DNA from: a virus
Lineage: Duplodnaviria; Heunggongvirae; Uroviricota; Caudoviricetes
DNA length: 35,147 bases
IMG/VR virus record: IMGVR_UViG_2802429245_000015
Direction: 5' to 3' (one strand)
The notes beneath the pieces were generated by a model, which saw only the letters and a list, made by a program, of their open reading frames with translations, had not been told where the DNA came from and searched no databases. Position 1 is the first letter of the stretch, and each line of letters opens with the position of its first letter. Positions 1,546 to 34,208 of the stretch are shown one piece after another. Position numbers and translations under genes: made by a program.

Positions 1546-4500
1546 TTACTCGATGCGCACAAACAGGCAGATACGACCGCTTGTTCCGTAAGAGTCCCTG
1601 ACCCCGGATAACGCCATATAACGCCCCGGGAAAGTGTACCCTGTAGCTCCTGCACTCGGTGTGGAACCGTAGGAGCCAGCCCCCGCAGAAGATATTGTGC
1701 ACGAAAGATTAACTCCGCCCAGTTGTGACCCTGGCACCACATCACCCAGGCCAATTTTGATTTCTTTATCCCCGGAAGTTGTTCCGCGATAAACAGCAAG
1801 CACCGGAACACCCACTGCCGGGTATTTGAAATATGAGCCTGAGCCTGCTGTCCGGGACAGTAAGAACGCCAGCGAATCGCCGTCGTAAATGACAGGGCTT
1901 ACTGTTGCATTCCAGTTGTTTCCACTCCAGCGGTAAGTCAGGCGATGAATACTGTGCTCACCTTCGTAATACTGGTTAAAACACAGCAGCATTTTGAATT
2001 TACGCGTTGTGTCTGATTCATCGTTATCAAAGGGCGACCACATCACATCAATGATGCCGTTAAATTTTGTGGTGCCTGCCAGTAGTGTGGAAGAGTCCGC
2101 AATGCTGACCGCATAACGCCCCGGGGTGGCCTCTTTCAGCCATTCAGCAAAATCGGCCTGTCCGTCAAATGTCAGGGCTTCGGTGCTGGCAAATGCCTGA
2201 CCGAACCCATACATGCCGGACAGTGCCAGCCTGCCCGGTGTGCGGTCGCGGATATCGCTCTGGGGTTCCATCGTCGCAGCCGCTTTCAGTTCAAGCTCCG
2301 TGCGCATGGCTTCTGTCGTGTCCAGCGCCAGTAATGCGCGGGCTTTTTCTGACAGTTGCGCCAGTAAAATCCGGCCCTCTGCACTGAAATAAGGCAGCGT
2401 GTTTTCTTCCGGTGTTATCTGGCTGACAGCCGTTAACACGTCATTAAGCGGCTGTTTACCTGCCAGTGCTTTAGTGACCGTTGTCGCAAAGTTCGGGTCA
2501 TTGCCCAGCGCCGCTGCCAGCTCGTTCAGCGTGTCCAGGGTTTCCGGTGATGAGTCAACCAGCGCGGCGAGCAGTTTGCGGACAAACGCCGCATTGGCTA
2601 TCTCAGTGCCTGCTGCGTCATCCGGCGGGGTTGGTGTTGTCGGCGTTCCGGTCAGCGCCGGGCTTTTCAGTGGTGCGCGGGTTTCAATCAGCGCCCTGAG
2701 TGAAGCCTCATCAACCTTCAGGTTCTCCCACCCAACCAGATAACCACTTCCGGTGTAACGGTTGTAATAAATATGACCGTTAATACCGTAGAAAATAATG
2801 ACCTTATAGGCCTTATCATCGGTCGGGTAGTCATTGGGTGTTGGCCAGATAATTTCAACAACACCACTGAACAACACGCCCTGTATTACTGCTTTTGTAT
2901 CCGCATAAACGGCATAGCGTCCGGGTTTTGCCATTTTTACCCAGCGGAGAAAATCAGCTCCTGTTTTAAACTCGGTCCTGTCGATGCTGGAAAACGCTTT
3001 CCCAAACCCGAACATGCCGGGAATCGCCAGACGACCTTCGGTGCGGTCGTAAATATTCTCCTGCGCATCCTTCTGTGCTGCATTGCCAAGTTGTGGCGTC
3101 AGATTCGTCCAGGTGACCGGGGCGGAGATATTATCGCCACGAACGGTCATAAGAATCCGTCCGTCTTTTCCAAAAAACAGAACCAGCTTTGTTGCTGTCT
3201 GGCTGGTTTTGTCGCCCCAGCCATTATCCAGCCAGATAATTTCTGTTATCCCGGTGGTTTCTTCCGTTCGCGTGGAAAAGGTGTAATACCGTCCCGGGTG
3301 CAGGTTGTGAGCGGTTCTGGCTATATCCGCTATATTGCTGGCAATAATTGAACGTGCTCCGGCGTCCGTCATTCCGTAACCAAATGCACCAGGCAGCGCA
3401 ACGCGACCTTCCGTGCTGTCGTAAAGGTCTGTCTGTATGTCCCTTACCGCTGCGCTTTTCAGCTCAAGCTCATTACGCATGGCTTCCACTGTGGCCTGTG
3501 CCAGCAGTGACCGGGCTTTTTCTGACAGCGGAGACAGTGAAGCATTCCCGTCCTGATTAAAGCACAGAAGGTTATCGGCTCGCTCTTCCAGATTACTGAT
3601 AGCGGTTAACACGTCGCTGAGTGGTTGTTTACCCGCCAGCGCGTTCATGATTGTTGTCGCAAACTCCGGGTCATTGCCCAGCGCCGCTGCCAGCTCGTTC
3701 AGTGTGTCCAGGGCTTCCGGGGACGAGTCAACCAGCGCGGCGAGCAGTTTGCGGACAAATGCCGCGTTCGCCATCTCCAGCCCGGTCGCATCGTCCGGCG
3801 GGGTTGGTGTGGTTGGCGTACCTGTGAACGCCGGGCTGTCCAGTGGCGCTTTTGTTTTCGTCTCGTCCATGACGGTTTTGACGGCTTTTGGCGTGGCTGC
3901 CAGTTCTTCGCTGTCGTTGTCTGTATCACTACAGAGTTGCACCAGACCTTTTTCTGTCGTGGAAGCATTGCTTCCCTTCAGGTCATCAACTATCCGTTGT
4001 GCCTCGTCCCTGTGCTGTTTCGCGCTCTGCTCGCTTTTTGCTGCCGCTTCGGCGCTGGCTTTTGCCTCGCCGGTCAGCGTTGCAGCTTCACCGAGTTTAT
4101 CGACCGCTTTCTGGACTATCTTATCGGCATCTTTGACCGCCTGTTCTGCCCGGGCGGCATTCTGGTTTGTTTCGGAGGCCAGCTCTTCAGCTTTCTGGAC
4201 ATTACCCGCAATTTCTTCTGCATCCTGCCGTATTTCCCCTGCGAGGGTTTCTGTATCCTGGCGGGCCTGTTCAGCAGCGTCCGCATGCTCTCTGGCTTTT
4301 TCTGCGCTTTGCTGCGCCTGTTGCGCCAGTTCCTCGAATTTCTTCAGGGCTTCCGGGCGCAGGTCAATATCGGTTGCCCCCAGAAAATCATTCAGCGAAC
4401 CGTCTGTCGAATCTTCATAAACGCGAATGACACCGATTTCTGAAAGGCGCTGTGTGCTTTGTGTCAGGCGAACGCTGTACACACCCGGCAGAACGGGGAA

Positions 4501-26923: not shown

Positions 26924-27373
26924 TTAAGGGCGTCGTGGCGGACGACGAACGGGGTGAGGCAGGTTCGGGGAGTGGTAAAACAAATCCGGCTGGTATTTAT
27001 TACGCTCCAGACGTCGCATCCGTTTGATGGCCTTGTAGACGGTTTTATACGTCACCCCATAACGCTGAACCAGTTCAGGAATATTATGGCCGTTAAAATC
27101 ACGCCAGATACGCATATCCCGGACAAGATTCTCCAGAATATTCCCCCTAGGAACATAAACCTGCATCCCGCCGATATGGCGACAAATCGCCACAACCAGC
27201 TCAATGGAATGAGCAGGGTCTGCGCCAATCCGGGCCAGCTCTTTACGCAGCAGTGCGTTCAGTTCAGAAAGTAACGCCGGATAAGCGGTGTTTTCCTGGT
27301 AATCGTTAAGGTATTCCAGAACGCTGTCGTCCCGGAAGTCTTCGAATAAATCCTGCTCTTTCATCTGTTTCAT
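26924..27373 (-). CDS. mor: Mor middle-operon transcription activator
   Basis: 149 aa; ...FEDFRDDSVLEYL...YPALLSELNALLRKELARIGADPAHSIELVVAICRHIGGMQVYVPRG...RDMRIWRDFNGHNIPELVQRYGVTYKTVYKAIKRMRRL matches remembered Mu Mor, including the C-terminal helix-turn-helix. Confidence 0.8.
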   Translation of the reverse strand: MKQMKEQDLFEDFRDDSVLEYLNDYQENTAYPALLSELNALLRKELARIGADPAHSIELVVAICRHIGGMQVYVPRGNILENLVRDMRIWRDFNGHNIPELVQRYGVTYKTVYKAIKRMRRLERNKYQPDLFYHSPNLPHPVRRPPRRP

Positions 27374-27921
27374 ACAGCAATTCTCCCGCTGTTTCGTGCG
27401 CGGGCATATGCACTGGTCAGTGCATCATAGCCGCGCAGTTCCCGCCCGGATGGGCTTACAGGTAAAGGCACACCATGTCGGGCAAAGGCTTCCCGGATGC
27501 AGCGCATATGCCACTGTTTGAGCGTTTCGAGCACAACATGCAACGATTCCCCGTGACACCAGGCCAGCGTGGAAACACCCTGACCACCATTACGTCTGGC
27601 CGTCAGGCGTTCAACGTATTTGTCCAGCGCGGCGTCGCTGATATCGGAGACGAAACCATCAAGAAACATCTGCTGCCAGATTTTATAAATCTTCTCGCGC
27701 GGTGTGACATGCCCCTTAAAGCGACGGCGGGGATGTTTTTTCTGCTTCTTAAAACCGCGCTCTTTCATGGCATCGAGCACCTGTTCCAGTTGTGCGACAG
27801 TCAGTTCGCGGCAACTGGTCTTGCCTGTGCACTGCACCAGAAAGGCGCGGTAAGTGTCATCGTCGAGTTGTAGATCACGACGGGCAACATGGATTAATTT
27901 AATCAGGGATGTGCGACTCAT
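27370..27921 (-). CDS. gemA: GemA-like protein (Mu gp16 family)
   Basis: 183 aa immediately upstream of mor with overlapping stop/start; N-terminus MSRTSLIKLIHVARRDLQLDDDTYRAFL fits the gp16 family pattern; GGAGG RBS. Confidence 0.55.
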   Translation of the reverse strand: MSRTSLIKLIHVARRDLQLDDDTYRAFLVQCTGKTSCRELTVAQLEQVLDAMKERGFKKQKKHPRRRFKGHVTPREKIYKIWQQMFLDGFVSDISDAALDKYVERLTARRNGGQGVSTLAWCHGESLHVVLETLKQWHMRCIREAFARHGVPLPVSPSGRELRGYDALTSAYARARNSGRIAV

Positions 27922-27993
27922 AATCGTACCTCCGAAAAGGGGCGGTGCTGCAACACCGCCCGTACTATTGATAACACTGAAAATGGAGACGAC

Positions 27994-28233
27994 ATGTCTG
28001 TAGAAAACAATGCGTCAATCACTTTTAATCTGGTTTCGGGTCTGATGTTGAAACTTGTCCAGAACAAGACTCTGACAAAGGGGGAAGCTCAATCCATACT
28101 GGCCTCAGCAATTCTTGAAAACATTCAGAACCGGGAGGGCGTTACGGATCTTGATCTTCATGCGCTTCGTCTGAAACTTGCTATGTCTGATTTCAGCGTT
28201 GAAAAAGAGCCTCCACAAGACGCTCAGGCGTAA
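27994..28233 (+). CDS. hypothetical 79-aa protein on the opposite strand to the early operon
   Basis: ATG at 27994 with GGAG 5 nt upstream; fills a 270-bp gap with no minus-strand ORF longer than 18 codons; AT-richer than flanks; 3' end overlaps the convergent 93-aa gene by 41 bp. Confidence 0.4.
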   Translation: MSVENNASITFNLVSGLMLKLVQNKTLTKGEAQSILASAILENIQNREGVTDLDLHALRLKLAMSDFSVEKEPPQDAQA

Positions 28234-28474
28234 TCACGTCTGATGGTTTAAGCCCCAGCCTGCGGCGAATAAATTCGTCGCGGGCTTTTTTGTTATCCAG
28301 TGAAACTTCATCTGCAATAATATTAATTTCATGCTGGATAATATTCACAGTAACACGCGCAGACAGCCCTTCACGGATAGCAATATCAATAATATCGCGC
28401 ATACGCTCAAGCATTTTAGCCTTCACCAGTTCTTCATCCAGATCTTTGGGGATAAATGTGATTTCATCGTTCAT
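28193..28474 (-). CDS. hypothetical 93-aa protein
   Basis: ORF in the AT-richer segment; charged, helical. Confidence 0.45.
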   Translation of the reverse strand: MNDEITFIPKDLDEELVKAKMLERMRDIIDIAIREGLSARVTVNIIQHEINIIADEVSLDNKKARDEFIRRRLGLKPSDVITPERLVEALFQR

Positions 28475-28794
28475 TTTGCAGTTCTCAGAATAAATTCAGG
28501 ATAAAAATTCATACTCATTTGCTGTAATACATTCAACGCGGCAACCGCAGCCTGCTTATCATTCCCTTTGGCTATTCCTTTTAATTCTCTGATAATCCAT
28601 GCCGGGCTAAGCGCCTCAGCCATTTCCAGTCGGGCGTCGTTAAAAAGCAATAGCTCTGCATCATCATGTTTTTCGTCTTCCAGATAAGATACGAGCTTAT
28701 CCGCTGATTCCCTGCTCATTCCGCCAGCCATCAATGTGGCCCGAAACTCCGCATGCAGGGTTACTTCTTGTGTTATCATTTCATTCACCTTCAC
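28471..28794 (-). CDS. hypothetical protein (about 102-107 aa; ATG at 28777-28779 or GTG at 28792-28794)
   Basis: ORF; its ATG lies 2 nt after the stop of the upstream zinc-ribbon ORF. Confidence 0.45.
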   Translation of the reverse strand: MKVNEMITQEVTLHAEFRATLMAGGMSRESADKLVSYLEDEKHDDAELLLFNDARLEMAEALSPAWIIRELKGIAKGNDKQAAVAALNVLQQMSMNFYPEFILRTAK

Positions 28795-28930
28795 AATTCA
28801 CGCATGCCGTGTCATCGCCCATATCGCAGTGGTTGCATTTCTGCTCGCCACAATAAGGGCACTCTTTCAGATATTCAGGGACTTCATTACCGCAGGCCGG
28901 GCATTCCTGCTTTTCGTTTACGTTATTCAT
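28781..28930 (-). CDS. small double zinc-ribbon protein (49 aa, four CxxC pairs); absent from the ORF track
   Basis: Hand translation: MNNVNEKQECPACGNEVPEYLKECPYCGEQKCNHCDMGDDTACVNCEGE; GAGGAGG 9 nt upstream of the ATG at 28928-28930. Confidence 0.5.
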   Translation of the reverse strand: MNNVNEKQECPACGNEVPEYLKECPYCGEQKCNHCDMGDDTACVNCEGE

Positions 28931-29105
28931 TCCTTAATACCTCCTCGCAATAAAAGATTTCACTGGGATAACGTTTTTGTATGCGCTCCATCACCTGCAT
29001 ACATGACTGCTCTGTGGGCCAGATTTTTTCCGTTACGGGTATGGCATCACAGGCATCATTCCCGCAGGTGCCAACCAGCAGGACAAAGCCAATTGACTTA
29101 ATCAC
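28923..29105 (-). CDS. small Cys-rich, probably exported protein (about 60 aa from GTG 29103-29105)
   Basis: GTG preceded by GGAG at 7-nt spacing; MIKSIGFVLLVGTCGNDACD... has a signal-peptide-like N-terminus with a non-canonical lipobox; four further Cys. The track lists a longer 78-aa version (28923-29159). Confidence 0.4.
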   Translation of the reverse strand: MIKSIGFVLLVGTCGNDACDAIPVTEKIWPTEQSCMQVMERIQKRYPSEIFYCEEVLRNE

Positions 29106-29382
29106 TGCTCGTCTCCATCTGTTCCAGGCGCTGCGCTTCGCGCATACACAGCTGCGCAATCATCATCTGGCGGGTAATGCCTGCACGAATAAACGAAGCT
29201 GCGCGACGGAGATTTTTTGCATTCGCCTGTTGAATCAATGCAGGTACTGATGCCAGACATTCGGCGCTGTCTTTAATCAGCGTTGCTGCTGTTATTTCTG
29301 TTTTTTGTCGTTCACTCTTTGTGGTCATAAACATCACCATTTCAGATTCAGGCGCGAGCAATCCCCTGACGCATCGCGCCAT
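29098..29382 (-). CDS. hypothetical protein (up to 94 aa; start uncertain)
   Basis: First ORF downstream of gam. Confidence 0.45.
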   Translation of the reverse strand: MARCVRGLLAPESEMVMFMTTKSERQKTEITAATLIKDSAECLASVPALIQQANAKNLRRAASFIRAGITRQMMIAQLCMREAQRLEQMETSSD

Positions 29383-29422
29383 AATTAAAAGAAAGTGAAT
29401 TAATTAAATATTCGTGGTGATA

Positions 29423-29947
29423 TTAAATACCGGCTTCCTGTTCAAACGGAATAATAGAAAAATCTTCAATGCCCGATTTAACTGTAATTCCGGCAACACC
29501 TGCGACCGCTTTCGGTTCCAGTAAAATCGCTTCCTTGTTGATTTCCTGTTTCGTGCGAATAAAGCGTTGCAGGCCAAGACGCTCCAGCGTTTCCATCACC
29601 GCATCCACACCGCGAATACTTACCGATGGTGGGCGCTGACGCCATGACACATCGCCGGTTACCAGGTTCGCCGTCTTCACCTTGCCGCCGTTCGTCAGTT
29701 CGTCACGGTTCGCTTCACACCACCCCTGAACGCCTTTTGAAAGGGTTTCAATACTGGTTTTAAGGGGCGCAATCTGTGAGGCGTATTTCTCCGTAATCTC
29801 AGCGATAGCGTCATTCATTTCCGTTTCAAGTCGTGCTGCTTCGCGTTGCAGGTCACCAATCCGGCGGATATCACATACCACGGCATCGCGGGATTGCGGA
29901 ACATAAGCCGCTGCGGCGTTCTTGATTCGTTTTGCTGGTTTAGCCAT
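29423..29947 (-). CDS. gam: Gam host-nuclease inhibitor (Ku-like DNA-end binding)
   Basis: 174 aa; MAKPAKRIKNAAAAYVPQSRDAVVCDIRRIGDLQREAARLETEMNDAIAEITEKYA...GITVKSGIEDFSIIPFEQEAGI matches remembered Mu Gam along its length. Confidence 0.85.
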   Translation of the reverse strand: MAKPAKRIKNAAAAYVPQSRDAVVCDIRRIGDLQREAARLETEMNDAIAEITEKYASQIAPLKTSIETLSKGVQGWCEANRDELTNGGKVKTANLVTGDVSWRQRPPSVSIRGVDAVMETLERLGLQRFIRTKQEINKEAILLEPKAVAGVAGITVKSGIEDFSIIPFEQEAGI

Positions 29948-29967
29948 ATAAATAAAGCTCCTGTTAA

Positions 29968-30267
29968 TTAATATTCGCTGTATACAATGCTGGATACAGC
30001 ACGATTGCTTAATTCCATCTTTTGGGCAATGACATGAATAGCCAGCCCGTCTTTATAAAGTTCTCGACACAAATATTTGTCGTGCTCACTGATTCGATAT
30101 GCACACAACGATATTCCGTGCCTTCTGGCGTGTGCCCGGAGGGCGGTTGTGGCAACGTTCAGTTTTTTCGCCATTTCCTCGACGGTCATTTTCCCGACAC
30201 TGGCTTCGATAAATTCCCGGTCTTCGCGTGACCAGCGTTTACGCTTACACATCATTCCGGTCACCAC
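29968..30267 (-). CDS. small helix-turn-helix DNA-binding protein (likely ATG start at 30253-30255, about 95 aa)
   Basis: Two HTH-like segments (MTVEEMAKKLNVATTALRAHARRHGI and LAIHVIAQKMELSNRAVSSIV); basic N-terminus. Confidence 0.5.
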   Translation of the reverse strand: MVTGMMCKRKRWSREDREFIEASVGKMTVEEMAKKLNVATTALRAHARRHGISLCAYRISEHDKYLCRELYKDGLAIHVIAQKMELSNRAVSSIVYSEY

Positions 30268-30687
30268 TCAGTACAACAGGGGTTCGCGCAGTGATGCCGG
30301 AATATGCCGCAGCGATAACTGAACCGCTTTCAGGGCAAGGGAAGAATACGTCCCCTGCGTCCAGCCTTTCGCCATTTGCCGGTAATCGCGCCAGATGTTC
30401 TGCCACTGCTCCCGTGCGTCCGGGTCTGACGCGCTGATGTATTCTCGGCCCATGACGTATTCCCATAAATCCACATTGAAGGCATTGCCAAACGTAATGG
30501 CGCGGAATACCGCCTCCCCGCAATAACGCGCACAAATGCTGTAATGGTCGAATGCAATCAGGTAAGTCTTTTCGCCATACCCCTCAACTTCGCGCGCGCA
30601 AATAAATTCGCGCAAGTCTCCGCCATTGTTATTACGCATTTTGATTCGAATTAATGCCTGGATTTCGTTTCTGATTTTGGCGTTCAT
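30268..30687 (-). CDS. hypothetical 139-aa early protein
   Basis: ORF with AGGAA RBS 8 nt upstream of the ATG at 30685-30687. Confidence 0.45.
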   Translation of the reverse strand: MNAKIRNEIQALIRIKMRNNNGGDLREFICAREVEGYGEKTYLIAFDHYSICARYCGEAVFRAITFGNAFNVDLWEYVMGREYISASDPDAREQWQNIWRDYRQMAKGWTQGTYSSLALKAVQLSLRHIPASLREPLLY

Positions 30688-30997: not shown

Positions 30998-31225
30998 TTA
31001 ACGCCAGATAATCTGGCAACCATTAAGGCGTGCCGTCCATACTGAACGGGCAACCCCTGATTTATGCTCCATAATCCTGACAGCGTTTCTGACCAGCTCC
31101 GGTGGCGGGCAGGTGATTTCAAGTACCGGGCGGGCCACGCCCAGCCAGGATTCGTTGACGTGGCTGCCGCGCTCCTGTAACCAGGTCTTTACTTCCGTCG
31201 CCATTTTGATATTACGAGACATCAT
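30998..31225 (-). CDS. small early protein immediately after B (Kil-like by position only)
   Basis: 75-aa ORF whose start overlaps the B stop; Mu kil occupies this position. Confidence 0.3.
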
Positions 31226-32181
31226 GATTCAGCATCCCCTTGCACACCCAGCAGCATCGAAACATCAACGTCCTGGTCTAACTCTTTGTAAGCCTCACGC
31301 AGATAATCCTCATTAACACGTTCACCTTTACCGAAGGCATTCATAACAGCAAGGCGCAGCGTTTGATTTATAATGCGGAGCGCACCAGGCGTTTGTGCAA
31401 TCTGCTGTAATAATTCCCGTTCATTTTTCCCGGTAATCTGCCAGGCATCCGCAATTGCGTTTACATCGTCTTCTTTGGTTTTATTAATTGCTGTGCGCTT
31501 TGCAATACGGGAAAACAGACGGGCAAACTCAATTGTTCTGTCGCCATTAGCGGTCATATTTGAATAAACACGGTGATTCCCCATCAGAACCAGACCAATA
31601 CAGGCGGACTCCTGTAACAGACGGAGCTCTTCCAGCGCTTCGGTGTCAAGGTGATCAGCTTCGTCAACAATGACCAGTCCCTGCGTCCCTTTCAGGCGGC
31701 GACGCAGATTACGGGAAAGCGGCCCTTTGCGACATGGTGCATTATTCATTCCCAACTCTTCGGCAAGTTCAGTCAGACATTCCAGCGTACTGGCACGGGA
31801 TGGCGCGATGGTGATCATCCAGACATTATTATTAGTGCGACAAAATTCACGGGCTGCTTCGCTTTTACCCACTCCTGGATTGCCACAGATAACAGCAATG
31901 GTTCCGGTCAGATTAGCAAAACGCATACTTGTCCAGATTTGACGGGCTGTTGCAGTTTCCACAAAACGCGGGGGTTCCGGCAGTTCTTCTGCGCGGTGAT
32001 AGTTTTCCAGCCAGCGTTCCAGTGTGCGCCCGACTGATTCCATGTTGCCGTTATATTTATCATTCACAAAACCACTGACTGTGCTCAGGGCCACGCCTGA
32101 TTCACTGGCGATGCGTGTCAGCGTGGTTTCTCCATTGTCTACAAGCGTGCGCAGTCCTGCGCGAATATCGGAAATATTCAT
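31222..32181 (-). CDS. B: MuB-type AAA+ ATPase / target DNA activator
   Basis: 319 aa; [14 protein letters not shown]... N-terminus, Walker [15 protein letters not shown], ...[14 protein letters not shown]...[18 protein letters not shown]..., matching remembered MuB over its full length. Confidence 0.9.
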
Positions 32182-32219: not shown

Positions 32220-34208
32220 TTAAATGGCTTTTTTACGTCTTTTCTGTTCCAGAATATCCAGTGACTGATTCAGATATTCATCACGAGCGGGTTCGTATTT
32301 ATCATCGGGGGTGCGATATTTAACCCGTACTGTGTTACCCACAGGCCGGAAAATACCAACAACCCTTGATTCTGGTGCTGCTGGTTCGGCTATCTGCGGC
32401 AGCAGTTCAGCAACTTCCAGCGCGTCCATTTGTTTCTGCGCCTTAATGGCTGCTTTAGTTGCAGATTTCAGTTGTTTCTGGCGGCGGCGATATTCACGGC
32501 CTGCCGCAGCATCATTAAATGCAACAGGTGCCAGACATTCCGCTTCACAGATAAATCGACCGTCCAGGGTGTAACAATAAACCGTGCTGTGTAGCTGCTG
32601 CGGATCAAACCTGACCACAACTTTTTTCACGCCGGCATTCATTAACGCCATGTTGTAATAAACGTTTTTTGCGCCTTTTAGGGAGCCGCCAACTTTTAGC
32701 GTAAACTCGCCTTTGCGTGAAACGTTCACCGCCTCAGCAGGCAGTAACAGCATCCGTTTTTGTTCTTCGGTTGGCTTACGCACAATCGTTCTGGCGTATT
32801 CACGCTCGAAAACATCATCGAACGAGAGTTTGCCCCCGCACATTTCTGTTTCACGGCCTGTTCTGGCATTGAACATCGCAACACCTTCAGCAAGGGTTTT
32901 CAGAAACAGCTCTGCATCAACAGCACGGTCGCCATAGTTATCAGGTTTTGCCTGCGGATTTGGCCCCGTATATGCGCCAGCCAGTGCCGGATGCTTATCA
33001 ACGTATTCCTCAAGCCCACCAACACCGAAAGCACGTTCAACAGGTTTTGCCTGGCCCCAGCCTTTACCGGCAACAACGCTTGTCCAGTGCATTTTTGCGC
33101 CCATCAGTAAAAACAGTCCCTTTGGATCGTCCTCTTTCACCTTAAAGCGGTAACGATTGGGCGCGCCCCCCGTCAGCCATTTATTCGCTGCACCATGGGT
33201 GTTATCAATGGTGATGTGAAAATCCTCCGGGATACCGTAGCGAGTCACAACATCCATGAACGAGAGGCGAATTGAATCAATGTTCTCGCTCACATCGCAG
33301 CGCCAGCCCAAAATTTTTCGGGTTTTCACATCCTGCCAGAACCATGTTTTCGGGCGGATCACATCACCGTTAAACCAGCGTACAAAGACGTTATGCAGAT
33401 AACCGTCGCCGTTGATCCACTGCATGGCGTCCAGGTGTTCCACAGTTCGCTGCTGTGCCGGTATCAGATGCATCAGTGCATGTTCACCTTCACGACAGGC
33501 AACAACCATTGCCTCGTCCAGTTGCTGAATCCGGCGAAAGGCCGTGGCGCGGGAGGGAATACACCAGCCATGCTCGCGTGCTGCCAGTTCCAGACGCTCA
33601 TAACATTTGCGGAAGGCGGGTTTTTCCGGTCGCAGATAATCTGCAATCAGAAACTGCCAGGCATCCTCGTCAAATTCACTTTTGTGAACATTGCGACGAG
33701 ATGCACCACGTCCATCAACAAGTGCAGCCGCCCAGTCAGGCTTCGCAAACTTCTGTACCTGGTAATACTTGTCCCGCAAAGTGGATGCGCTGACCTGGTA
33801 ATGCCCTGCAACGGTCGCAAAAGCCGTTTTCGTTGAAATCCCCTGGTTCAGCATTTCGTCTGCAGCCTGAACCGCAGGCAACCATTTTTCAGCAAGTCTG
33901 CGCTGGGAATCGCTGGCGTTATCCCATTTGCTCCACAGTGCCTCACGATCATAATCATGGGCTTCCAGCGTGGGGCGGGCGATTTCAAAATACCCCTGAC
34001 TTGTTTCAATTCTCCCTTGTTGCAACAGAATTTCAGCACGTAATGCGACAGGGAATGATTTGATATTGAATTCAAATGATACACCTTTAGTTCCTGCAAC
34101 CTGCCTGAACTCCCAGCCTTCTCTTTGTGCCTTACGTGTAATGTTAGTGGCTTGCTTTGGTAAACCTGCCAAACCGAGCAACTCTTTTGCTGTATACCAT
34201 TCTTTCAT
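32220..34208 (-). CDS. A: MuA-type DDE transposase
   Basis: 662 aa; from [60 protein letters not shown]... onward matches remembered MuA; the N-terminal DNA-binding domain diverges from Mu A (as described for D108). Confidence 0.95.

Follow-up and report, generated by a model that had tools for sequence, protein, structure and literature searches.

Two small, cysteine-rich reading frames lie next to each other in the early operon of a Mu-like transposable prophage. The question they raise is whether they are genuine genes, whether they belong together, and what their proteins may do in the host cell. The prophage is the whole stretch of DNA analyzed here (35,147 nucleotides, IMG/VR record IMGVR_UViG_2802429245_000015, hereafter the window), and its genes are on the minus strand. 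A first-pass annotation had described the two frames as unannotated, translationally coupled genes, the upstream one encoding an exported protein and the downstream one a metal-binding protein. Judged from their sequences, the frames, here called ORF-A and ORF-B, are genuine and conserved protein-coding genes. The reading we prefer, at a probability of roughly 0.6, is that they are independent accessory cassettes, of which ORF-B would encode a zinc-stabilised protein and ORF-A a cytoplasmic one, both binding proteins of the host.

Position and expression signals of the two genes

ORF-A and ORF-B are both placed in the early operon between gam and gemA, and homologues of MuA, MuB, Gam and GemA flank them (Table 1). 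Their placement within positions 28781-29105 was given earlier without a strand; the placement holds, and all features are on the minus strand. The motifs CPAC, CPYC, CNHC and CVNC and the GAGGAGG ribosome-binding site reported for the 49-aa frame can all be read in ORF-B (protein MNNVNEKQECPACGNEVPEYLKECPYCGEQKCNHCDMGDDTACVNCEGE). The four cysteines reported for a GTG-initiated protein of about 60 aa upstream are Cys14, Cys19, Cys35 and Cys53 of ORF-A (protein (M)IKSIGFVLLVGTCGNDAC...).

Table 1. Coordinates of ORF-A, ORF-B and the features around them in the window
Feature	Position	Strand	Basis or remark
gam	29423..29947	minus	
Upstream neighbour ORF, up to 94 aa	29098..29382	minus	PHROG 24376, same operon
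GGAG, Shine-Dalgarno-like, 7 nt upstream of ORF-A GTG	29113..29116	minus	sequence, putative function; within 3′ end of the 94-aa ORF
8-nt overlap GTGATTAA	29098..29105	minus	ORF-A start codon and TAA stop of the 94-aa ORF
ORF-A, 60 aa, GTG start, TAA stop	28923..29105	minus	GTG 29105-29103, TAA 28925-28923; PHROG 16556; identical to RefSeq WP_105266492.1
GAGGAGG Shine-Dalgarno element, 9 nt upstream of ORF-B ATG	28940..28946	minus	sequence; also encodes Glu-Glu-Val, residues 54-56 of ORF-A
8-nt overlap ATGAATAA	28923..28930	minus	ORF-B start codon and ORF-A TAA stop
ORF-B, 49 aa, ATG start, TGA stop	28781..28930	minus	ATG 28930-28928, TGA 28783-28781; PHROG 5584; identical to RefSeq WP_172956166.1
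Downstream neighbour gene, 102 aa, ATG 28779	28471..28779	minus	PHROG 1988; ATG is 1 nt past ORF-B TGA
gemA	27370..27921	minus	

That ORF-A starts at this GTG is confirmed by its distinct, full-length close homologues, 13 of 18 of which have ATG there. A longer, 78-aa ORF-A from TTG 29159, which has a basic N-region, was also considered and was rejected, since its extension is not conserved and the homologues have their ATG at the position of the GTG. The upstream neighbour probably starts at an internal Met, because its PHROG 24376 profile match starts at residue 20. For the downstream neighbour, residue 11 of a 107-aa version with a GTG start is where the PHROG 1988 match begins, at profile position 6, and this favours a start at ATG 28779 (Met6).

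Overlaps of 4 nt in the ATGA/GTGA style had been described at these junctions, but both are 8 nt long; in each of them the upstream stop is a TAA 5 nt past the start codon, and the TGA inside GTGA or ATGA is out of frame. Translational coupling remains a plausible part of the earlier description because stop and start codons overlap from gene to gene in this tightly packed stretch, whereas the pairing that it implied does not stand, as the two genes mostly occur separately. Equally tight packing is seen at neighbouring junctions of the operon. In the interval 27000-30500 there was no terminator-like site on the minus strand and no Rfam match at E≤1; on the latter result an RNA element, which had been considered, was rejected.

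Conservation and independent distribution

The term "unannotated" fits only the ORF list, whose cutoff was 60 aa. RefSeq, GenBank and PHROGs all list the two genes as hypothetical proteins, with exact RefSeq matches of that name, and PGAP annotates both in E. coli SE11; they are thus ordinary, already catalogued hypothetical phage genes. Pfam, NCBIfam and PADLOC gave nothing at threshold for either protein, and literature searches turned up no work, experimental or other, on gp13 of phage Mu or on the ORF-A and ORF-B families.

By its sequence ORF-B is the orthologue of this Mu gp13 (old E14). It matches phrog_5584 over residues 1-49 (E 1.6e-29) and is 86% identical to Mup13 (NP_050617.1) by tblastn. 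Mu gp13, D108 gene 13 and the SfMu homologues, at 86-88% identity over residues 7-49, share its eight cysteines and the KCNHCDMGDD motif, and in the early operon they likewise stand between gam and gemA. The N-terminal tail of ORF-B (MNNVNEKQE) is shorter than and different from that of Mu gp13 (MENNKTSYSWLGKFTTVKQE), so that a recombination junction lies inside the first codons; the gene upstream is gp12 in Mu and ORF-A in the window. The order gam, ORF-B, gemA is the same in Mu and in loci L006-L027 and L029 of our collection, and each ORF-B locus among the more distant L030-L044 showed at least one of the two flanking genes. The search for this family found 231 clusters at E≤0.01. One cluster "representative" of 577 aa, which we take to resemble RNase J, has no resemblance to ORF-B and looks like a clustering artefact. 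The "gp13" of the Gabija preprint was also set aside, being the JBD30 Gam and not Mu gp13.

ORF-A matches phrog_16556 with its residues 3-59 on profile positions 2-55 (E 1.2e-28), and an exhaustive HMMER search gave 39 representatives of this family at 50% identity. Cys35 and Cys53 are near-invariant or invariant, the extra pair C14 and C19 is present in most members, and CEEVLRNE is kept in close homologues. Some 80 species, the majority Erwiniaceae and the rest including several Yersinia, carry a standalone chromosomal copy, which marks ORF-A as a long-lived protein family. In Erwiniaceae the 80-aa ORF that follows this copy has no Pfam match, and the neighbourhood has no synteny with E. coli yebV-yebW.

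Two explanations that would take away one or both genes, or join them in one unit, were weighed against this record. That one or both are chance open frames or pseudogene remnants without a protein product could be argued from their very short length, from the GTG start of ORF-A and from the frameshift of ORF-A at an A6 run in three related loci and in clusters P0010-P0012. Against this, the reading frames of the two ORFs are conserved in dozens of related prophages; the first-pass annotation had named a lack of such conservation as grounds for refutation. The frames are kept with a dN/dS of 0.17 for ORF-A (pooled over 18 distinct copies) and 0.14 for ORF-B (pooled over 27 distinct copies), which indicates purifying selection on both. 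The two families are also conserved across genera and kinds of mobile element, Shine-Dalgarno elements stand before both ORFs, and AlphaFold2 is confident for ORF-A, so that we give this explanation hardly any credence. A functional two-gene module, for example an inhibitor with its chaperone or a toxin with its antidote, in which coupling sets the stoichiometry, would fit the adjacency of the genes, their 8-nt overlap, the strong ORF-B Shine-Dalgarno element within ORF-A and the same pair in E. coli SE11 and two IMG/VR contigs (L006 and L007). Among the fetched loci, however, these and the window are the only ones with both genes. Most Mu-like prophages have only one: ORF-A alone is found in prophages L078-L093, L096 and L097, and ORF-B alone in D108, L008-L044 and Mu, which has no ORF-A. 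Prophage L078 lacks ORF-B although its partial MuA segment and its Gam are 100% identical to those of the window. ORF-B is missing from the surroundings of the ORF-A homologues of Yersinia, Aeromonas and Hafnia phages and of Erwiniaceae chromosomes, no conserved ORF-B neighbour was seen in 33 distant loci, and the overlap is matched by similar packing elsewhere in the operon. The module is largely refuted by this distribution already and is very improbable. Because they occur independently in other prophages, ORF-A and ORF-B are separate cassettes and not a pair.

Cysteines, fold and relatives of the two proteins

The CxxC knuckles of ORF-B are at residues 10-13, 24-27, 32-35 and 43-46. In an alignment of 68 family sequences C24, C27, C32, C35 and C43 never vary, the other three cysteines (C10, C13 and C46) reach a conservation of at least 90%, and the motif KCxxCDMGDD is conserved across the family. 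The four CxxC pairs are kept in 66 of these homologues, which makes the arrangement more than chance. The metal-binding hallmarks noted at first sight are therefore borne out as eight near-invariant cysteines in four knuckles, and two Cys4 zinc sites are likely from the sequence. Classic C4 zinc ribbons (Zn_Ribbon_1, DZR, the RadA finger and those of the ribosomal proteins eL40, eL37 and bL32) align with the CPxCG knuckles at residues 10-27, whereas the second half with CDMGDD has no counterpart in them, and ORF-B differs further in being free-standing and strongly acidic. Its first half scores 23.0 bits against Pfam Zn_Ribbon_1 (PF13240), below the gathering threshold of 25; DZR (PF12773) gives 17.8 against a threshold of 27.3 bits, and the Lar family of restriction alleviation proteins (TIGR03655) 11.5 against the NCBIfam cutoff of 39.6 bits (E 0.28). 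The PDB sequence search gave sub-significant zinc-ribbon matches only, such as the weak match of the first half to the RadA N-terminal finger (E 0.007). The AlphaFold2 model of ORF-B has a pLDDT of 80.

For ORF-A the AlphaFold2 model (pLDDT 92) predicts the fold beta1(2-14)-beta2(19-29)-helix(32-45)-beta3(50-59). This fold is simple and common, and equal scores are reached by ClpS, the RuBisCO small subunit and topoisomerase domains. The alpha/beta-sandwich phage inhibitors AcrIC8 (an anti-CRISPR, PDB 8g9s) and T7 Gp2 (PDB 2wnm) share 8-10% sequence identity with ORF-A, a resemblance which is no evidence of shared function, and a PDB sequence search with ORF-A found nothing.

From its sequence ORF-A may be a distant, unproven relative of DUF1482 (PF07358, PHROG 1092), the family of YdfD and of E. 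coli YebW. YdfD of the Qin prophage binds and inhibits the host enzyme IspG and causes lysis, and two conserved cysteines have been described in it (PMC8835842). The proteins of the ORF-A and DUF1482 families are similar in size (55-65 aa) and share a hydrophobic N-terminal stretch, an (I/V)Y-x-T-xx-C motif and a second conserved cysteine. Both families are found among early accessory genes of temperate phages and adjoin recombination genes: ydfD has dicB on one side and recE on the other, and in Aeromonas phage pAEv1818 an ORF-A homologue follows recE-recT. They differ in the spacing of the two conserved cysteines (17 residues in ORF-A, 12 in DUF1482) and in the additional pair C14 and C19. 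An hhalign comparison gave a probability of 66% with seven DUF1482 sequences and 28% with a larger alignment of 61, at a score of 24.1; the reversed alignment scored 10.7, and none of 30 column shuffles exceeded 15.4. In reciprocal HMM tests each family picks out the other first, and about 43 of the 50 best non-self matches of the DUF1482 model among 13,026 small ORFs belonged to the ORF-A family. Pfam PF07358, on the other hand, has no match at E≤1 in the window ORF-A and none at E≤10 in four homologues, among 26 family members the best value, E 0.059, is attained by only two, and PHROGs separates the two families.

Two further explanations concern what the proteins do and where. ORF-B might be a nucleic-acid-binding zinc-finger regulator, like Mu Com or P2 Ogr, and not a protein binder. 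In favour are its C4 zinc-ribbon motifs in a small phage protein and its weak fold matches to GATA and other DNA-binding zinc fingers, and Mu does encode another small zinc-finger regulator, Com. Com is a translational activator, and Ogr is an activator of late genes. The net charge of -8.5 with only three Lys (family median -9.5) is unfavourable for binding DNA or RNA, however, no regulator family in Pfam or NCBIfam matched at threshold, and the match to phrog_536, a "transcriptional regulator", reached only E 0.012; we regard a regulator as improbable. Export of ORF-A, as the first-pass annotation had it, would mean a Sec or lipoprotein signal peptide, a lipidated Cys14 and a mature cysteine-rich peptide in the envelope, with a role such as superinfection exclusion or inhibition of an envelope enzyme. 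In favour are the hydrophobic N-terminus followed by a conserved cysteine and the near-invariant C35 and C53, which could make a periplasmic disulfide. The PROSITE lipobox rule for bacterial lipoproteins, PS51257, asks for {DERK}(6)-[LIVMFWSTAG](2)-[LIVMFYSTAGCQ]-[AGS]-C, a Cys at residues 15-35 and a Lys or Arg in the first seven residues. Its residue pattern (LLVSAC) is present in 53 of 77 ORF-A family members, which also speaks for export, yet the pattern together with a Cys at 15-35 occurs in 6/77, and all three conditions hold in only 2/77. The first cysteine is at residue 12 in 49 of the 77 and the early cysteine is absent from six, a basic residue among the first seven is found in only eight, and most homologues begin MLIGFVLLVSAC, with no Lys or Arg. 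The window protein has Lys3, but the pattern is absent from it (Thr at -1) and its Cys is at residue 14. Moreover, residues 2-14 are modelled as a strand of the sheet (pLDDT 93), lipidation of Cys14 would leave three cysteines, an odd count for disulfides, and YdfD, which may be related, was obtained pure as a GST fusion and bound IspG both in vitro and in vivo (PMC8835842). A hydrophobic N-terminus and then a cysteine are insufficient for calling a signal peptide. Export is thus unlikely, and ORF-A, on its sequence and its model, is probably cytoplasmic.

Proposed roles and their meaning for Mu-like phages

In the reading that we prefer, the two genes would be accessory cassettes of the early operon, lodged in its variable ("semi-essential") part from gam to gemA. 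After induction a long early transcript would carry both ORFs, and their translation would be aided by their own Shine-Dalgarno elements and by the stop/start overlaps with the upstream gene. ORF-B would be a very acidic cytoplasmic protein of 5.4 kDa whose eight cysteines most likely coordinate a pair of zinc ions, the first in a classic C4 zinc ribbon (Cys10, 13, 24, 27) and the second in a family-specific site on KCxxCDMGDDxxCxxC (Cys32, 35, 43, 46). Such a rigid, zinc-stabilised acidic module may bind a host protein, possibly one that itself binds nucleic acids, at a positively charged surface and so block it. ORF-A would be a cytoplasmic beta-beta-alpha-beta protein whose hydrophobic N-terminus forms the first strand of the sheet and not a signal peptide. 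We infer that it binds and inhibits a host enzyme, because its possible DUF1482 relative YdfD does so with IspG, and it may be toxic when over-expressed. A small inhibitor of a host protein is the most reasonable guess at function.

In Mu-like phages small accessory genes are exchanged in the gam-gemA stretch, and hardly any of them has a known function. The identity of ORF-B with gp13 means that experiments can focus on Mu itself, a reference phage with easy genetics, and the family, being widespread and having a sharp motif, lends itself well to a curated domain model. From the possible link between ORF-A and YdfD comes the concrete hypothesis of a toxicity rescued by ispG.

A wider reading, which we put forward only tentatively and hold to be doubtful as yet, is that the ORF-B family neutralises one conserved host factor while ORF-A extends the YdfD-type inhibitors. 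If it is true, the ORF-B family, for which neither Pfam nor NCBIfam has a model, would be a widespread and uncurated group of acidic two-zinc mini-proteins with the hallmark KCxxCDMGDD, present in many kinds of temperate phages and in integrative elements (at least 231 clusters), and its host factor could be, for example, a protein of defence or repair that binds DNA. Inhibitors of the YdfD type, which act on essential host enzymes, would then reach into transposable phages and into a domesticated chromosomal gene of the Erwiniaceae.

Two conserved early genes in a mosaic interval

ORF-A (60 aa) and ORF-B (49 aa) are real, conserved and independently mobile early genes, and both are ordinary members of phage protein families catalogued before (PHROG 16556, E 1.2e-28, and PHROG 5584, E 1.6e-29, respectively). 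Exact RefSeq proteins exist under the name "hypothetical protein" (WP_105266492.1 for ORF-A, WP_172956166.1 for ORF-B), an ORF-B relative at 90% identity is named "zinc-ribbon domain-containing protein", and in E. coli SE11 both genes were annotated by PGAP. The first-pass annotation had the frames, the four CxxC pairs of ORF-B and its GAGGAGG right; its description of the pair as unannotated is true solely of its own ORF track. The frames are intact in related Mu-like prophages, with pooled Nei-Gojobori dN/dS of 0.17 for ORF-A (18 distinct copies) and 0.14 for ORF-B (27 distinct copies). A frame lost in related prophages, named at first pass as an outcome that would refute the two genes, was therefore not seen. 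The 90%-identity cluster containing the exact ORF-B sequence (P0185) has a representative of 577 aa, unlike ORF-B and apparently resembling RNase J, which appears to be a clustering artefact of the protein collection.

The window is a Mu-like transposable prophage in reverse orientation, with late genes left of the MuA/MuB/Gam/GemA block. These four genes all lie on the minus strand, and their arrangement places ORF-A and ORF-B in the part of the early operon which in Mu is called the semi-essential region. Between 27000 and 30500 no terminator-like site was found on the minus strand, and no Rfam match was obtained.

Coordinates of the genes, signals and side features (window positions unless a locus is named)
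Feature	Position	Strand	Remarks
MuA	32220-34208	minus	
MuB	31222-32181	minus	
Gam	29423-29947	minus	
ORF-A	GTG 29105 to TAA 28923	minus	60 aa; Cys14, 19, 35, 53
A6 run	29026-29031		ACGGAAAAAATC; codons 25-28 of ORF-A
ORF-B Shine-Dalgarno GAGGAGG	28946-28940	minus	9 nt upstream of start
ORF-B	ATG 28930 to TGA 28781	minus	49 aa; CPAC, CPYC, CNHC, CVNC
Hairpin	28257-28286	plus	13 pairs, 8 G-C, then TTTTTGTT
79-aa ORF	27994-28233	plus	opposite to early operon
GemA	27370-27921	minus	
Chromosomal ORF-A locus, example	L203 4004-4174 and 4277-4519		

The N-terminus of ORF-A is (M)IKSIGFVLLVGTCGNDAC, and GGAG is present 7 nt before its GTG. This start is confirmed by ATG at the equivalent position in 13 of the 18 copies; a 78-aa version from TTG 29159 was rejected, its extension not being conserved. 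The junctions of ORF-A with the upstream gene and with ORF-B are 8-nt overlaps (GTGATTAA and ATGAATAA), and the gene downstream of ORF-B starts 1 nt past its stop. The overlapping starts and stops described earlier are real, but the ATGA/GTGA style is not: at both overlaps the upstream gene ends on TAA, and the TGA within GTGA/ATGA is not its stop. A true 4-nt ATGA overlap of that style lies at 28471-28474, between a 102-aa gene (PHROG 1988) and a 93-aa Mu gp14-like gene (PHROG 6075). The overlaps and Shine-Dalgarno elements make translational coupling, also proposed at first pass, plausible, but since neighbouring junctions in the early operon overlap as well, it would be a general operon trait and not a special link between ORF-A and ORF-B.

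The two genes are independent cassettes. Among the fetched loci only the window, SE11, L006 and L007 have both (the last two on the same contigs as L094 and L095, respectively), while ORF-A is found without ORF-B in L078-L093, L096 and L097, and ORF-B without ORF-A in Mu, D108, SfMu and L008-L044. In L078, Gam and the covered part of MuA are 100% identical to the window and ORF-B is absent. The surrounding DNA is mosaic: at least 85% identity to sequenced phages is reached only by gam and one 140-bp piece that runs from the 3′ end of ORF-B into the beginning of the following gene, and a 500-bp query around the two ORFs was mostly covered in only 3 of 5,426 complete E. coli genomes.

Between gam and gemA, cassettes are swapped (28193-29382 compared with L078-L097). 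In prophages with Gam and GemA 92-100% identical to those of the window, and MuA likewise where the matching allele is present, the sets of small genes in between differ (PHROGs 24376, 16556, 5584, 1988, 6075), with junctions at, or within, the first codons of genes. The plus-strand 79-aa ORF has no match in Pfam or PHROG; an opposite-strand gene is also found at this spot in Mu (gp15) and SE11 (DUF2513 protein). The hairpin 24 nt past it is the strongest terminator-like one in the region and falls within the minus-strand gene 28193-28474.

ORF-B and gene 13 of Mu

Mu gene 13 (Mup13, "previously called E14") and its counterparts in D108, SfMu and Yersinia Mu-like phages are 86-88% identical to ORF-B over residues 7-49. 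The difference is confined to the first few residues, and therefore the recombination junction lies within the N-terminal tail. The profile search gave 231 clusters at E≤0.01, nearly all of 45-65 aa; distant members are located within strings of small early genes, both in integrative elements and in other prophages, and no neighbour gene is common to these loci.

ORF-B has a rigid cysteine pattern and strong acidity (net charge -8.5; family median -9.5). In the 68-sequence alignment the pattern is CxxCG, 10-25 residues, CPxCG-xx-KCxxCDMGDD(V/T)xCxxC and an acidic tail, where C24, C27, K31, C32, C35, D36, G38, D39 and C43 are invariant, C10, C13, C46, M37 and D40 are at least 90% conserved, and 66 members have four CxxC pairs. 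No curated model matched ORF-B at threshold (Zn_Ribbon_1, 23 against 25 bits; DZR, Lar and others far below). Classic C4 ribbons (RadA N-terminal finger, E 0.007; eL40, eL37, bL32) give weak alignments to its first half, which favours a sequential arrangement of two putative Cys4 sites. The AlphaFold2 model (pLDDT 80) has two short strands, and Foldseek returned only matches with E of at least 1, to assorted zinc fingers.

In the Mu-like prophages L008 (3275-4099), L009 and L011 (both 3308-4132) an upstream open frame of about 200 codons runs on into the ORF-B domain without a stop, and GTG stands at the position of the Mu gp13 ATG, so that the domain could be made as part of a fusion protein or as a small protein of its own. 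PHROG 6418 (231-position profile) likewise terminates in the ORF-B domain.

Distribution and possible relatives of ORF-A

Mu itself has no ORF-A; many Mu-like prophages from Escherichia and Salmonella carry it. Unrelated temperate phages that infect Yersinia, Aeromonas and Hafnia have it too, in their early regions and close to xis, int and recombination genes. An exhaustive HMMER scan gave 39 family representatives at 50% identity. About 80 species also carry a family member as a standalone chromosomal gene, equipped with a Shine-Dalgarno element and an ATG of its own (L158-L237); most of these species are Erwiniaceae (Pantoea, Erwinia, Tatumella, Mixta, Rosenbergiella), and Yersinia, Morganella and others make up the rest. 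In the Pantoea reference locus, as in 30-50 of the 80, this copy is not part of a prophage and has close by it genes which we take from their sequence to be lldD and an OsmC-like gene. In 50 of the 80 the ORF after it is a conserved one of 80 aa, for which Pfam gave no match. In several E. coli Mu-like prophages ORF-A is frameshifted at or near the A6 run (L099, L100 and L140, near locus position 4077; clusters P0010-P0012), with a truncated or fused product; slippage at the homopolymer, errors in sequencing or toxicity of the gene, with selection against it, could account for this.

The N-terminus of ORF-A had been read as signal-peptide-like, and a lipobox-like LLVSAC is indeed present in 53 of 77 family members, but export is unlikely. 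Most homologues start MLIGFVLLVSACG and have neither Lys nor Arg there. In 49 of the 77 the earliest Cys comes at residue 12, and six lack this Cys together with its partner. All three PROSITE PS51257 conditions hold in only two members, and the window protein, with Thr at -1, does not fit the residue pattern. AlphaFold2 gives a confident alpha/beta prediction (pLDDT 92, pTM 0.73) in which a beta-hairpin with residues 2-14 as strand 1 precedes a helix (32-45) and strand 3 (50-59).

The near-invariant C35 and C53 suggested a comparison with the DUF1482 proteins YebW of E. coli and YdfD of the Qin prophage. They share with ORF-A a hydrophobic N-terminus, (I/V)Y-x-T-xx-C, a second conserved Cys and a length of about 60 aa. 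In lambdoid early-left operons, ydfD and its phage homologues also occupy a niche similar to that of ORF-A homologues, with dicB on one side and recE on the other. The hhalign probability was 66% with 7 DUF1482 sequences and 28% with 61, the latter with a score of 24.1, where the reversed alignment scored 10.7 and none of 30 column shuffles exceeded 15.4. In reciprocal ranking over 13,026 small ORFs, the ORF-A family made up about 43 of the first 50 non-self matches of the DUF1482 HMM, and 5 of 9 DUF1482 ORFs came within the first 23 non-family matches of the ORF-A HMM. Pfam PF07358 did not match the window ORF-A, and the families are separate in PHROGs. We put true common ancestry at about even odds.

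Proposed roles

ORF-B would bind two zinc ions, and its acidic, zinc-stabilised surface may occupy a basic site on a host protein. ORF-A would be cytoplasmic and, by analogy with YdfD, which inhibits IspG, may bind a host enzyme; it may also be toxic, from which the frameshifted copies at the A6 run might follow. The two useful outcomes are the identification of ORF-B as gp13 and the YdfD lead for ORF-A.
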